Source: a virus
Direction: 5' to 3' (one strand)
Virus record (IMG/VR): IMGVR_UViG_3300037261_000012
Span: 30,884 to 94,883 of that record
DNA length: 64,000 nucleotides
Position 1 is the first letter of the stretch. Each line of letters starts with the position of its first letter. Below are positions 866 through 62,249 of this stretch, in pieces. Under the pieces are notes generated by a model. The model was not told the origin of the DNA. It saw only the letters and a list, made by a program, of their open reading frames with translations, and did not search any database. A program made the position numbers and the translations under genes.

Positions 866-1722
866 TTAAAATTCCTATTTGGGGAACATTTTCAGTTGAA
901 GGCTCGCGCAAGGATAGGATTATGAGCACATTAATTTCGGTTGACACTGTGATCAGGAAGAACACTGGGTTTGACACCTGCCTGGGCATAAGTGAGTGCA
1001 ATCAATTGCAGGAACCAGAGTTGCTGGTGATCGAACCATTCTTCACTAACTTCAAGGCCGCCAACAACGATCAACTAGGGGCTATATTCAAGGTAGCTGC
1101 TGAATGTGCGGTTGCCGGAAAACCTATGCCGCGCACTATTGTTGTAAATATAAGCTACAGTAAGATAAATGCAGTAACTATCAAAGGATACCTGCTGGAT
1201 GTAGTGGAGCATTTTAAGGGTATGGGCTACAAGAACTTTACAAGCGTACATATCCCGTTTGAATCCTATGGCTGCCCGATGGTTGGTTCGGTGTTGAGCC
1301 TTATTTTTTGTAAAGATCGTATTGCATACCTGCCAGTGGCAAGGACTGTACTACCAGGAGCGGCCTTTGAAGGACTGCTTTATCACGCTATGGCAGGAAG
1401 AATGAGGGGGAGCGTCTATGCCGGAGCCGCCGACGTAAGCGGGTTCCTCAACAGTAACAGGTCATTCCTACCTGATCTAAGTGTCTGGGCAGAGGAGGGT
1501 TTGCGCGCCGAATATCGTAAGGACAACAGTAGTGTAAGTACTGTCTTTAAGGATGAGCATGTACATGAGCTATTTGGAGTAAGCTCGTACATGCACCCAC
1601 TTGATTTGCACTTGTGTACACCGCCGGTTATTCTTGCTACTTTTCTGAACAACTTAAAGCAATTGAATGACCTTACAGACACCATGAAAAAGGATGCTGC
1701 GGAAACAAATAGTCAAAAATAG
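859..1722 (+). CDS. degenerate C5-cytosine methyltransferase-like protein, probably non-catalytic
   Basis: Order and spacing of ELLVIEPFFTNF / DQLGAIF / PRTIVVNI / GY / SYGCPM resemble C5-MTase motifs IV-VIII, but the PC and ENV residues are absent. Confidence 0.4.
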   Translation: MVIKIPIWGTFSVEGSRKDRIMSTLISVDTVIRKNTGFDTCLGISECNQLQEPELLVIEPFFTNFKAANNDQLGAIFKVAAECAVAGKPMPRTIVVNISYSKINAVTIKGYLLDVVEHFKGMGYKNFTSVHIPFESYGCPMVGSVLSLIFCKDRIAYLPVARTVLPGAAFEGLLYHAMAGRMRGSVYAGAADVSGFLNSNRSFLPDLSVWAEEGLRAEYRKDNSSVSTVFKDEHVHELFGVSSYMHPLDLHLCTPPVILATFLNNLKQLNDLTDTMKKDAAETNSQK

Positions 1723-1763
1723 TTCAGAAAGTGCTTGACAGACTGGCCTGATTGTGGGAAACT
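1717..1763 (+). promoter_or_regulatory. early promoter repeat, copy 1
   Basis: AAATAGTTCAGAAAGTGC-TTGACA(1735)-17 bp-GAAACT. Confidence 0.85.
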
Positions 1764-1793
1764 TCAATCATACCGAACGCAATGGAGTGCGAG

Positions 1794-1928
1794 ATGAAAG
1801 CAGAATACGAAGATTACCTGCTGGAGATTCAAGGCCAAGAGCCTATGAGTTTTCAAGAGTATTGCCGCTGGGTGGTGATGTCAGTGGAATTCGAAATCCG
1901 ATCCAAACTTGCAAGGAGTGCAAAATGA
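1794..1928 (+). CDS. small hypothetical protein (44 aa, MKAEYEDY...)
   Basis: GGAGTG RBS directly after the promoter; stop overlaps the next ATG. Confidence 0.65.
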   Translation: MKAEYEDYLLEIQGQEPMSFQEYCRWVVMSVEFEIRSKLARSAK

Positions 1929-60302: not shown

Positions 60303-60604
60303 TCACATCAAGATTCACGCCAGTTGACCCGTCAGAAGTGCGGGTATTAACATTTGACTTCACTGATGGTCTTGCGGAAGGAGAAACCGTATTCTCTGCT
60401 GATGTTGAAATTACGGTTGAACAAGGGGTTGATACCTTAGCAAGCACAAGGTTCGGAAACCCAGACATCCAAACACCATTGGTACTGATAGTTGTGTCTG
60501 GTCAAATTGACGGGGTAGATTATCACGTTAAGACCATTGCTACCACCACCAACTCAAATAAGATTTTGGTTCTAGCCAAGATATTGCCAGTAAGGGCAAA
60601 GTAA
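60299..60604 (+). CDS. virion-associated protein
   Basis: DP.E....FDF...L..GET...G..G.DY. Confidence 0.7.
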   Translation: MITSRFTPVDPSEVRVLTFDFTDGLAEGETVFSADVEITVEQGVDTLASTRFGNPDIQTPLVLIVVSGQIDGVDYHVKTIATTTNSNKILVLAKILPVRAK

Positions 60605-60635
60605 CTCTGCAATCAATTGCAGTAATGGAGGTTGT

Positions 60636-62249
60636 GTGGAACCAAAGCACCCTGAATTATCCTGCCCAAAATGTGGTTCTTCTGTCGTAAAAAATGGAGG
60701 CCAGCATGAAAGGGGAAGTTTAACAGGGTTACAAAAATGGAAATGCTCAACTAATACCCCTAGAGACAGGGTATATTGTTGGAATGGAATCCAGCCAATA
60801 GGTATTGAAAAATATAGGTCTAGAGGTATAAGTCAAGATAAGTCAAAGGAGTTAAAGCAGTTAGTCTTAGAAAAAGGGAATACTAGGTTTGTGATAACCT
60901 CAGCCCAAAATGCAACACCAGTAAATAAACCTTTTTTTGCCAGCCTACTAAAGTATTGCAGCTTGAACAAAGCTCAGTTAATAGTAATACCTTACAGGTA
61001 TAAAAATCCTACCAGTGTATGGAGTAAAAAAGCTAAGGAGGATGATTGGTGGGCATTGGAGCTTACACCATACCTGCTTGAGCACAGGGTAAAGATTAAC
61101 AGCAACTTGATCCTGCTGGCTGACATTAAGACCCAACCTACGGCCACTAATCCCCTAGATGGGTTTGAGACACTTACTGGAGGGGTATGTGCAATAATAG
61201 GGCACCCAAAGCTAGAACTCCTTACAGTGGCGGCCCCGGCCAATAAGATGGCTAAAATACTTACAACAACTGGTGCTGTTACCGTTAAGAACTACATCCC
61301 AAGCAAAGCAGGGAAAAAGGGTGAATTCCACCACACTTTTGCTGCTTTAGTGGTGGAGGTTAAAGGAAACAAGTTCCATCTCCGGCAATTGATTGCACTC
61401 AATGATGGTAGCTTCATAGACTTAGAGTATGAATATAGGGGTAGTAAAAGAACTAAGGTAGAACTTCCAGGCATGGTATTAGGGGACATTCATGAGGAAT
61501 TTATTGATCCTAATGTAGTCAAGGCAACCTTTACTAATCCTGACAGTATGATCAAAGTGCTCAAGCCTAAGTTCGTTGTATGGCATGATGTGTATGACTG
61601 CTATGCAAGAAATCACCATGAAAAAGACGATGTATTCATCAACTTGGTGAAGCACAGGACTGGTCTAGGTAATGTGGAGAAGTCGCTAGATAAGACCCTT
61701 GCCTTCATTGATGCAGTTACTTCTAAAGGGCAGACTAATATATTTGTACCCTCAAACCATCCTAATGAGCACCTGGCTAGATGGGTTAAAGAAACTGATC
61801 CAAGGCATGACCTGGAGAATTGTGTATTTTGGGCAGAGACATTCGTGGCAATGGCTGCCAGCGCCAAGATGACCGATAGTGGAGCGCAGACAGTTGACCC
61901 ATTTTACTACTGGGCAGCGAAGAAATTGAAGACTGCCAAGCAGTCTATATTCCTTAACCCAGATCAAGGGTTTTTAATTAAGGGTATAGAGGTTGGATTC
62001 CATGGTCACCAAGGAGCAGATGGTGCGAGAGGCAGTAGATTAGGTTTTGGTAAGGTAGGGGTTAGAACGGTTATAGGCCACAGCCACAGCCCAGGAATTA
62101 GGGATGGTGTTTATCAAGTTGGTACGAGTAGCAGATTAAGACTAAGTTATAACCACGGCCCTAGTTCTTGGATGCACACCCACGCTTTAATCTATAAAAA
62201 TGGAAAGAGGACATTAGTATTTATTGTTGGGGAGGAGTGGAAAGCATGA
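60636..62249 (+). CDS. T5 A1-like calcineurin-type metallophosphoesterase with N-terminal Zn ribbon
   Basis: ITSAQN, TTGAVT..NY...KAGKKGEFHH, GDIH, HD, SNH, HGH, GHSH, YN.GPSSW. Confidence 0.8.
   Translation: MEPKHPELSCPKCGSSVVKNGGQHERGSLTGLQKWKCSTNTPRDRVYCWNGIQPIGIEKYRSRGISQDKSKELKQLVLEKGNTRFVITSAQNATPVNKPFFASLLKYCSLNKAQLIVIPYRYKNPTSVWSKKAKEDDWWALELTPYLLEHRVKINSNLILLADIKTQPTATNPLDGFETLTGGVCAIIGHPKLELLTVAAPANKMAKILTTTGAVTVKNYIPSKAGKKGEFHHTFAALVVEVKGNKFHLRQLIALNDGSFIDLEYEYRGSKRTKVELPGMVLGDIHEEFIDPNVVKATFTNPDSMIKVLKPKFVVWHDVYDCYARNHHEKDDVFINLVKHRTGLGNVEKSLDKTLAFIDAVTSKGQTNIFVPSNHPNEHLARWVKETDPRHDLENCVFWAETFVAMAASAKMTDSGAQTVDPFYYWAAKKLKTAKQSIFLNPDQGFLIKGIEVGFHGHQGADGARGSRLGFGKVGVRTVIGHSHSPGIRDGVYQVGTSSRLRLSYNHGPSSWMHTHALIYKNGKRTLVFIVGEEWKA

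Follow-up and report, generated by a model that had tools for sequence, protein, structure and literature searches.

Why should a phage carry the same short palindrome every few kilobases, and almost always in the same orientation, along its entire genome? This question is raised by a 64,000-nucleotide stretch (hereafter, the window) comprising bases 30884-94883 of the 94,883 bp genome of the phage G000 (IMG/VR record IMGVR_UViG_3300037261_000012). An initial annotation of this stretch had drawn attention to a 12-mer, GCAATCAATTGC, with 25 copies on the plus strand and one on the minus strand, and an exact count yields the same numbers. Seven additional copies carry one mismatch, where six had been listed. 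By comparison, 100 dinucleotide shuffles of the window contain on average 0.52, and at most 3, matches with no more than one mismatch.

The pattern extends over the whole genome, which carries 35 forward and 2 reverse exact copies plus 9 one-mismatch sites, or 46 sites in total. When the genome is treated as a circle, the mean distance between sites is 2.56 kb, and the spacing is more even than that of uniformly placed sites (coefficient of variation [CV] 0.57, P = 1e-4). Likewise, 99% of simulated placements contain a gap larger than the 6.5 kb maximum seen here (P = 0.008). Within the window, most distances indeed fall between 1.8 and 3.3 kb, as originally stated. Thus, a repeated palindrome lattice with over-even spacing is a real feature of this DNA. 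Aligned copies form an 18-bp palindrome, ACTGCAAT-CA-ATTGCAGT, in which the central dinucleotide alone is asymmetric; the lattice site can be represented in its duplex form as TGCAATCAATTGCA. More generally, sites take the form (AC)TGCAAT-YR-ATTGCA(GT), where Y is a pyrimidine and R a purine, and are palindromic over 14-18 bp, a length that fits the 13-16 bp palindromes of ParB-parS and KorB-OB systems.

A lattice shared by a phage family and selected as DNA

The capsid proteins of DLP5, DLP3 and Summit, siphophages that infect Stenotrophomonas maltophilia (genus Delepquintavirus, ~96 kb), share 62-63% identity with that of G000, and the gene order of DLP3, which is encoded on a single strand throughout, is that of G000. 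Relatives were represented by 13 assembled IMG/VR genomes (including G001-G010, G016 and G020, the last being IMGVR_UViG_3300033516_000084, L176-L180; data for others were partial) and DLP3, and DLP5 and Summit were searched in addition. A megablast search with 16 kb of G000 against cultured phages gave no match, and metagenome and 18-mer scans did not find a close relative of G000.

The lattice is a property of the family: of 16 related genomes, DLP3, DLP5 and Summit among them, most carry 13-47 copies. Exact GCAAT-YR-ATTGC sites number 37 in G000, 40 in G001, 47 in G002, 26 in G003 and 34 in G004. There are 25 in DLP3, 27 in Summit, 28 in DLP5, 21 in G016 and 32 in G020, and the counts in a clade that is considered below are 20 (G005), 13 (G007), 3 (G008) and 1 (G006). 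Two side lineages exhibit the same architecture with a variant half-site: G010, L058 and L071 carry TCCAAT-YR-ATTGGA, and G009 and the phage contig of a metagenome-assembled genome (MAG) carry TGCACT-TA-AGTGCA. The center is always a pyrimidine-purine step (CA, TG, CG or TA). Spacing is over-regular in nearly every lattice genome tested (CV 0.43-0.6, P mostly at or below 1e-4), although in G006, G009 and G010 the regularity is less marked or does not reach significance. Because the inclusion of one-mismatch sites, which occupy gaps in the array, raises regularity in G003, G004, DLP3 and G005, these variant sites belong to the lattice as well.

The initial annotation had proposed a genome-scale system specific to phages, and the whole-genome lattice and its recurrence in relatives support this proposal. 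So does the 3-Mb MAG noted above, where the 88-kb phage contig holds 17 of the 18 GCACT-type palindromes, indicating that the motif is no common host site, at least in that MAG. The lattice genomes range from 38 to 61% GC. Individual sites are nevertheless not fixed. In most pairs of GCAAT-type genomes that encode the candidate reader described below, roughly one third to two thirds of the alignable intragenic sites are shared and the rest are lineage-specific. As judged from these alignments, sites turn over while their density and spacing persist. A literature search for the motif strings returned unrelated primer matches and no paper on the motif in a phage, and the palindrome is not mentioned in the report on DLP3 (PMC7326821).

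Is the lattice maintained as DNA or as RNA? Protein alignments around intragenic sites were used to compare codons that specify the same amino acid in two genomes. Identical codons are used in 65% of such cases inside sites versus 40% in the flanks (odds ratio 2.8, P = 7e-47), whereas amino acid identity is alike inside and outside (0.50 versus 0.48). The earlier view that selection acts on the nucleic acid rather than on the encoded peptides therefore holds. Additional evidence comes from the one-mismatch variants, which concentrate at the two positions of each half-site nearest the center and involve specific base changes (T5>C, A4>C). On the coding strand they are strand-symmetric, with paired counts of 28 versus 29, 24 versus 23, and 7 versus 5. 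No asymmetry was found in the flanks of the sites. Symmetric, base-specific variation of this kind fits protein readout of duplex DNA and does not fit a hairpin of RNA or of single-stranded DNA. Together, these sequence comparisons argue for selection of the lattice at the DNA level.

The initial annotation had also suggested that the motif is read on transcripts, where it would form an RNA hairpin (UGCAA-UCAA-UUGCA). Such a hairpin might, for instance, direct transcript processing, influence stability or signal antitermination. This idea has some appeal for G000, in which all genes and 35 of 37 copies lie on one strand, the 18-mer folds into a tetraloop-capped stem of 7 bp (-7.5 to -11 kcal/mol), many copies are located just 5′ of a ribosome-binding site (RBS), and the copy at 44377 is embedded in a terminator-like hairpin. 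However, the orientation of sites is mixed in relatives and flips between orthologous positions, the A4>C change is tolerated even though it disrupts base pairing in the stem, and substitutions that would retain G.U pairing in the sense transcript show no excess over those that yield A.C (8 versus 6). Furthermore, copies that begin 1-3 nucleotides past a -10 element would be truncated at the 5′ end of the transcript. The hairpins formed by the sites are modest overall (-3 to -11 kcal/mol), and weak copies are no more stably folded than shuffled sequence. Among the Rfam 15 covariance models, only tRNAs and a permuted tmRNA reach the gathering score, and none does so at any lattice site. An RNA function was rejected on the strand symmetry of the variants, the mixed orientation in relatives and the lack of an Rfam match, and we regard it as very improbable.

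Orientation itself was a prominent part of the original description. The 35:2 ratio in G000 is far from parity (binomial P = 1e-8), and G020 is similarly polar (28:2, given as CA:TG centers on the coding strand). The other relatives yield 32:15 (G002), 23:17 (G001), 19:8 (DLP5), 18:8 (Summit), 17:7 (DLP3), 11:11 with 12 additional CG centers (G004), 10:11 (G016), 9:8 (G005) and 7:16 (G003). Moreover, the majority of orthologous site pairs differ at the center. The system thus does not conserve orientation, and the 25:1 bias seen in the window cannot be extended to the family, even though G020 shares the polarity. These two polar genomes have the same sense and are not close kin (46% amino acid identity over 13 core genes). 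Given that nearly all long open reading frames (ORFs) of G000 are on the plus strand, G000 alone does not allow orientation relative to transcription to be told apart from orientation relative to the genome.

Several simple causes of the 35:2 ratio were rejected. Background composition fails because ATCAAT and ATTGAT are equally frequent outside sites (38:38) and TG outnumbers CA overall. Avoidance of TGA stop codons fails because a TG center generates TGA in only one of three frames. An HNH gene located beside the reader gene is also present in the non-polar G004 and G016, and no gene exclusive to G000 and G020 was found. The polarity could instead reflect strand-specific DNA transactions that are marked by the sites, such as nicks like those of T5 or phiKMV, lagging-strand priming, polar fork barriers or recombination hot spots. 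The strong bias in the two polar genomes would suit such a role, as would a spacing of ~2-3 kb that is near the length of Okazaki fragments, and the family encodes primase, helicases, RecA and RuvC, with an HNH nuclease beside the reader gene in some members. Nevertheless, we consider such a role improbable because most relatives have mixed orientation, orthologous sites flip, the sites are symmetric except at their center, and the HNH gene is neither universal nor restricted to polar genomes.

A zinc-ribbon/winged-helix protein as candidate reader

The symmetry of the site implies that its reader would be a dimer. Which protein might this be? When the presence or absence of all G000 ORFs was compared with the other genomes, a single gene at window positions 19509..19976 (plus strand) was singled out. 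In its 155-amino acid product, a zinc ribbon (CPKC...CxCG) at the N terminus is combined with a winged helix-turn-helix at the C terminus, with the recognition helix SDVSSYLTILRSKG and the wing GGSTW. The initial annotation had named this protein among three possible readers, and it alone among the three follows the motif through the relatives.

An AlphaFold model of the candidate reader exhibits a zinc ribbon joined to a winged helix of the PadR/MarR type (pLDDT 82.5). Top Foldseek matches are PadR, MarR and ZitR chains (probability 1.0, E values of 1e-3 to 1e-2, TM scores of 0.35-0.57), and the structure rows of the Atlas are labeled PadR/HTH_20. At the sequence level, the protein has no Pfam match at E ≤ 0.01 (PF03551, PF01047 and similar families), belongs to no PHROG family, and gave nothing below E = 1 in a profile search of the PDB. 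In an exhaustive profile search of 1.84 billion proteins, the family amounted to only 185 representatives, with few exceptions 125-155 amino acids long. Of 50,697 cultured phage records, only those of three Delepquintaviruses encode the protein.

The gene lies directly 3′ of a PPDK-like dikinase gene (17467..19452, plus strand) in every reader-bearing genome in which the locus was mapped, which comprises eight loci (G000-G004, DLP3, G009 and G010). Homologs are also encoded by DLP5 and Summit, at the same position, and by G016, G020 and G011. Reader-bearing genomes of the GCAAT, CCAAT and GCACT types (G000-G004, DLP3, DLP5, Summit, G009, G010, G016 and G020) have mostly perfect sites. In addition, the recognition helix differs with the half-site: it reads SDV(S/A)SYLTILR in nine GCAAT-type genomes, SDVSSQLIVLMH in both CCAAT-type genomes, and (A/S)(V/S)QLTVLQ in both GCACT-type genomes.

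A natural test of this association is provided by G005-G008, a clade with genomes of ~112-120 kb. No reader homolog was found there by hidden Markov model search with filters off, and the PPDK-like gene instead abuts an 88-amino acid gene (for example, L122:4022-4288) whose product is exceptionally well conserved within this clade (76-80% identity). The share of perfect sites among those with at most one mismatch drops to 20/37 in G005, 13/41 in G007, 3/34 in G008 and 1/17 in G006 (54%, 32%, 9% and 6%, respectively), compared with 70-94% elsewhere. Many sites have been lost outright from G006. Such degradation is as expected from loss of the reader. By capsid and core identity these genomes are nested among reader-bearing ones, and the reader was probably lost in one event.

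Candidates for a replacement reader in this clade were rejected. Ten small ORFs specific to the clade yielded only one cold-shock domain, and the 88-amino acid ORF at the vacated locus is a core gene of all GCAAT-type genomes. In G000 the latter is encoded 3′ of the reader gene (20487..20753, plus strand), and is followed by a conserved gene for a 97-amino acid CxxC protein (20887..21180, plus strand), whose counterpart in DLP5 and DLP3 is annotated as a transcriptional repressor. An HNH_3 endonuclease gene (20054-20497), which holds the lattice site at 20276, is inserted between the reader gene and the 88-amino acid gene in G000, G004, G016 and G020 only.

Another protein named in the initial annotation was a ParB-like protein encoded at window position 404, and a parS/OB-type lattice loaded by a phage clamp of the ParB/KorB type, which uses CTP, would be consistent with the length of the palindromes and with the presence of three small ParB_N proteins in G000. 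This proposal did not survive the comparison with relatives. The ParB_N proteins at window position 404 and genome position 30497 are common only to G004, and a third one of 223 amino acids (genome 29829-30500) has only weak matches in G001, G002 and DLP3. All three proteins are short, and Pfam scans returned ParB_N alone. No PF02195 match is present in G003, G005, G008 or G010, all of which carry lattices, and the ParB/parS reading was rejected on this ground. Of all the explanations considered here, it is the least probable.

Proposed operators and roadblocks versus a possible architectural role

Where the sites are located relative to genes provides clues about what a bound protein might accomplish. 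Across the family, 30-60% of sites reside in the ~9% of sequence that is non-coding, and 17% of sites end within 25 nucleotides of a start codon, versus 4% of random positions. Intragenic sites have no preferred place along the gene. In the window, about 14 copies are intergenic and the intragenic ones are read in all three frames (encoding LQSIA, CNQLQ or AINC), just as initially described.

A search of the G000 genome with a -35 core yielded 27 matches containing TTGACA, roughly 19 of which are, by our count, members of a repeated early-promoter family. Lattice sites begin 1-38 nucleotides past the -10 element in seven of the 27 matches, when ~0.4 would be expected by chance. Three of these seven are at +1 to +3 from the -10 and therefore lie over the transcription start. 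Specifically, the site at 7269..7280 begins 2 nucleotides past the -10 of an early promoter with TTGACA at 7238, and the one-mismatch site at 12208..12219 (GCAATCAAGTGC, plus strand) begins 3 nucleotides past the -10 of the promoter at 12176-12204, which was recovered by a consensus scan as well. Farther downstream of their promoters are sites at 10348..10359 (15 nucleotides past the -10, promoter at 10304), 23788..23799 (12 nucleotides, promoter at 23747) and 21251..21262 (38 nucleotides, promoter at 21184, with an RBS following). The site at 55499..55510 is 8 nucleotides past a promoter-like TTGTAT-N17-TAATAT element, and that at 56159..56170 lies 3′ of a TTGACA at 56108 and 5′ of an RBS. 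All exact sites given in this section are on the plus strand unless noted.

The early-promoter family has the form agtgcTTGACAgac...attgtggGAAACT, with a TTGACAgac core (agtgcTTGACAgac...attgtgg followed by GAAACT, TAAATT or GAAAAT). It occurs on the coding strand only and is confined to the early and middle region. In the window, its TTGACA elements start at 1735, 2681, 5079, 7238, 7884, 8456, 10304, 12176, 15722, 17416, 21184, 23747, 24641 and 26751.

A second group of sites occupies the short gaps of the densely arranged structural operon, where a stop codon precedes and an RBS follows. These are 4780..4791, with a stop codon before and the next RBS after; 31064..31075, between the DNA polymerase and portal genes; 36073..36084, which is 13 nucleotides 5′ of the protease start codon; 42166..42177; and 60609..60620, which is 15 nucleotides 5′ of a start codon. 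Other sites are immediately 3′ of a stop codon (16965..16976, intergenic), directly 3′ of a terminator-like hairpin behind the capsid gene (38878..38889), or form the top of a longer terminator-like hairpin (44377..44388).

Intragenic copies are found at 998..1009, 2841..2852, 11002..11013 and 59699..59710, within the 3′ part of the PPDK-like gene (19166..19177), within the HNH ORF (20276..20287) and in the tape-measure gene (50225..50236). The position of the site in the thymidylate-synthase-like gene (26333..26344) is kept in G001, DLP3 and G020 and degraded in G005-G008, and that in the MuF-like gene (33629..33640) is kept in six relatives with a CA, TG or CG center. The remaining exact copies are at 14288..14299, at 28193..28204 and, on the minus strand, at 61385..61396, the sole copy in the window with a TG center on the coding strand. 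One-mismatch sites with the sequence GCAATCAGTTGC are located on the minus strand at 342..353 (mismatch at an inner position), 3631..3642 and 59976..59987. The others are 37531..37542 (GCACTCAATTGC, plus strand), 39879..39890 (GCAAGCAATTGC, minus strand) and 46979..46990 (GCAATCAAGTGC, plus strand, in the tape-measure gene).

We hypothesize that the lattice is a dispersed network of operators and roadblocks at which the zinc-ribbon/winged-helix protein docks. A dimer of this protein would bind the duplex palindrome through two TGCAAT half-sites separated by a flexible pyrimidine-purine step. Sites on or just past the starts of sigma70-type early promoters would act as operators that occlude initiation. 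The remaining sites, which are placed about every 2-3 kb in short intergenic gaps, or within genes where there is no gap, would block polymerases that had started upstream. Jointly, they might silence a one-directional 95-kb genome, for example when it resides in the cell as a plasmid prophage, or they might shut off early transcription. Even spacing could then result from selection against long uncovered stretches. What the comparisons establish is the lattice with its regularity, its selection as DNA, its conservation across the family and the joint distribution of site and protein. Binding, dimerization and the effect on transcription are deduced from sequence and from a predicted fold, and we hold this reading tentatively, as the favored one and at slightly less than an even chance. 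The proposed lifestyle has precedent in the family, as DLP3 forms stable lysogens, DLP5 has been recovered as a phagemid, and DLP3 may also lysogenize in that form (PMC7326821, PMC5834331).

Several observations weigh against this hypothesis. A majority of the sites lie within genes, and just 7 of 46 are at recognizable promoters. The covariation of recognition helix and half-site involves three lineages that are also the most divergent, and so it is not phylogenetically independent. The complete 75.6-kb genome G017 (IMGVR_UViG_3300023313_000004, L066) encodes a reader homolog (E = 5e-23) but lacks any TGCA-N2-YR-N2-TGCA site. A symmetric dimer does not account for the polarity of G000 and G020. 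No lattice site is present at the promoter-like element of the reader gene itself, the nearest upstream site being 269-4030 bp away. This element resembles a TACAAT/TATAAT -10, is conserved 5′ of the reader gene in all eight genomes compared (window ~19470-19500), and has no recognizable -35. A -10-like element of its own with no site nearby is what a constitutively expressed repressor might have.

The reader-less clade also poses a difficulty. G005-G008 retain 17-41 sites with at most one mismatch, the mismatches are confined to inner positions with the outer TGCA...TGCA intact, and G005, G007 and G008 keep a regular spacing. If the reader is gone, then why do the sites persist? At a local protein identity of 40-86%, this retention is more than neutral decay would leave, which suggests that another factor may also read the sites or that erosion is slower than expected.

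The zinc-ribbon/winged-helix protein might accordingly be accessory or unrelated to the lattice, with the sites read by a core MerR/Xis-like regulator of 141 amino acids (L009:14988-15413), by the 88- or 97-amino acid protein, or by a host protein. The MerR/Xis-like protein (phrog_19880) and the other two phage proteins are all present in G005-G008, whose relaxed lattice stays regular, and the helix-turn-helix of the MerR-like protein also differs in the CCAAT-type G010. A palindrome of 14-16 bp with a central pyrimidine-purine step resembles the operators of LacI-family host proteins. On the other hand, perfect palindromes within the GCAAT type follow the presence of the zinc-ribbon/winged-helix gene. 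Searches by tblastn with the G000 MerR-like and 97-amino acid proteins and the G008 88-amino acid protein found no counterpart in the lattice-bearing G009, and the 88- and 97-amino acid proteins likewise have none in G010, which also has a lattice. A host reader is further disfavored by the near absence of the motif outside the phage contig of one MAG and by its occurrence in phages of 38-61% GC, which probably have different hosts. On balance, a different reader appears unlikely.

A more serious, if still doubtful, contender retains the same protein-site pair and assigns it an architectural, marking or protective role, in which the protein would mark, bridge or coat the chromosome from regular nucleation sites. 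Possible purposes include compaction, discrimination of phage from host DNA, guidance or limitation of base modification, and nuclease shielding. Spacing that is regular irrespective of gene boundaries, with over half of the sites within genes, is well accommodated by such a role. Also consistent is the location of the reader gene in a putative DNA-modification cluster with the PPDK-like dikinase, a phosphatase and a thymidylate-synthase-like enzyme, and the DNA of DLP3 is uncut by all 15 restriction enzymes tried (PMC7326821). However, an architectural role does not predict the strong enrichment of sites at promoter starts and in stop-to-RBS gaps. Furthermore, to our knowledge, proteins resembling PadR or MarR are not known to spread along DNA.

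How does the hypothesized operator and roadblock network compare with known systems? The nearest known cases, by our analysis, are the stoperators of Cluster A mycobacteriophages in terms of function, and the dyad repeats of Cluster O mycobacteriophages in terms of form. Stoperators are asymmetric 13-mers with one working orientation, bound by a monomer that carries a helix-turn-helix and a 'stoperator' domain (L5 gp71, TipsytheTRex; PMC9283540). As in Cluster A, more than 20 identical short sites are distributed genome-wide at promoters and intergenic gaps, those of G000 and G020 follow the direction of transcription, and a single phage protein, proposed in Cluster A to block both initiation and elongation, is proposed here to do likewise. 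Unlike stoperators, the sites of the G000 family are 14-18-bp palindromes with symmetric flanks, are free in orientation in most members, are over-regularly spaced and are intragenic in more than half of cases, and the candidate reader is not related to gp71 (no PHROG or Pfam match). Of the stoperator-like silencing suggested in the initial annotation, the functional part is the reading we favor, whereas the asymmetric site, the monomeric reader and homology to gp71 do not carry over.

Cluster O genomes carry more than 30 copies of a 17-bp dyad repeat, TGTTCGGNNNCCGAACA, whose function is still unknown (PMC4351075). Dyad symmetry, genome-wide spread, an asymmetric center without meaningful orientation and a predicted dimeric protein are shared with the lattice described here, as is the presence of copies in coding regions (about one third in Cluster O). 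The Cluster O repeats are denser toward one genome end, and no reader has been proposed for them. The present lattice differs in its sequence, phage family and hosts, and by having a candidate reader and variant half-sites in side lineages.

Looser parallels exist among plasmids and plasmid prophages. The ~94-kb plasmid prophage P1 has one repressor, C1, with 22 dispersed 17-bp operators (PMC8546580), and DLP5 has been reported to be a plasmid prophage as well. Unlike the lattice sites, C1 operators lack symmetry, accompany promoters and are not evenly arrayed, and C1 is unrelated to the candidate reader. On plasmid RK2, KorB binds palindromic OB operators over a ~60-kb replicon and silences at up to ~1.5 kb (PMC11790492), a range that would make sense of a 2-3 kb lattice spacing. 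However, KorB is a CTP-dependent sliding clamp of the ParB family, whereas the candidate reader has no CTPase domain and no ParB-type protein is conserved with the lattice. Finally, repressors of the PadR, MarR and ArsR types bind palindromic operators as dimers and have the fold predicted for the C-terminal domain of the candidate reader, which differs from them by its lack of a Pfam or PHROG match, by its extra N-terminal zinc ribbon, and by dozens of sites per genome, which would be atypical.

So far, few phage groups are known to carry dispersed operator-like repeats (Cluster A, P1 C1 and Cluster O), and the lattice would extend the same principle to an unrelated family of Gram-negative siphophages, with an evenness that is statistically demonstrable in most genomes tested. 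The candidate reader, a small family without Pfam or PHROG annotation, is testable, and natural experiments are at hand in the reader-less clade, the side lineages with switched half-sites and the two polar genomes. If true, the hypothesis would demonstrate how a one-directional 95-kb genome can be kept quiet. It would also provide a handle on the temperate lifestyle of DLP3, DLP5 and Summit, which infect S. maltophilia and are considered for therapy. A broader conjecture, and a rather unlikely one, is that even palindrome lattices constitute a general and undescribed system of large phages, in which unrelated readers (zinc-ribbon/winged-helix proteins here, ParB-like proteins elsewhere) tile the genome at a selected distance of ~2-3 kb. 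Within the G000 family, the lattice would then have turned polar at least twice, in G000 and in G020, which would imply that direction is sensed, for example by a one-way barrier to RNA polymerase or to forks that oppose transcription.

Genome context of the lattice

The ends of the G000 record overlap by 127 bp. PHROG and Pfam scans identify genes for a portal, a MuF-like protein, a protease, a capsid and a 1759-amino acid tape measure; for DNA polymerase I, ligase, a DnaB-like helicase, a Toprim primase, RecA and RuvC; and for the PPDK-like dikinase, a dual-specificity phosphatase and the thymidylate-synthase-like enzyme.

A conserved cluster at window positions 17467-27657 encodes the PPDK-like dikinase, the zinc-ribbon/winged-helix protein, the 88- and 97-amino acid proteins and a DSP-type phosphatase, along with a 360-amino acid phrog_20946 protein, the thymidylate-synthase-like enzyme and a 290-amino acid protein without assigned function. 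The dikinase consists of a PPDK_N domain and a mobile domain of PEP-utilizing enzymes, and its C-terminal barrel gave no match. Because the DNA of DLP3 resists all restriction enzymes tried (PMC7326821), it must carry modifications, and the cluster is probably a pathway for DNA base modification.

The region that follows the large terminase gene (genome 26043-31748, L010:11043-16075, reaching window positions 1-865) encodes a PAPS-reductase-like protein, an ADP-ribosyltransferase-like protein (PF03496) and the three small ParB_N proteins discussed above. As a whole, this block is common only to G000 and G004. Finally, Rfam models identify nine tRNA genes and a permuted tmRNA (RF04321, 21702-21998, 59.8 bits) within window positions 21497-23721, in agreement with a separate remark in the initial annotation.

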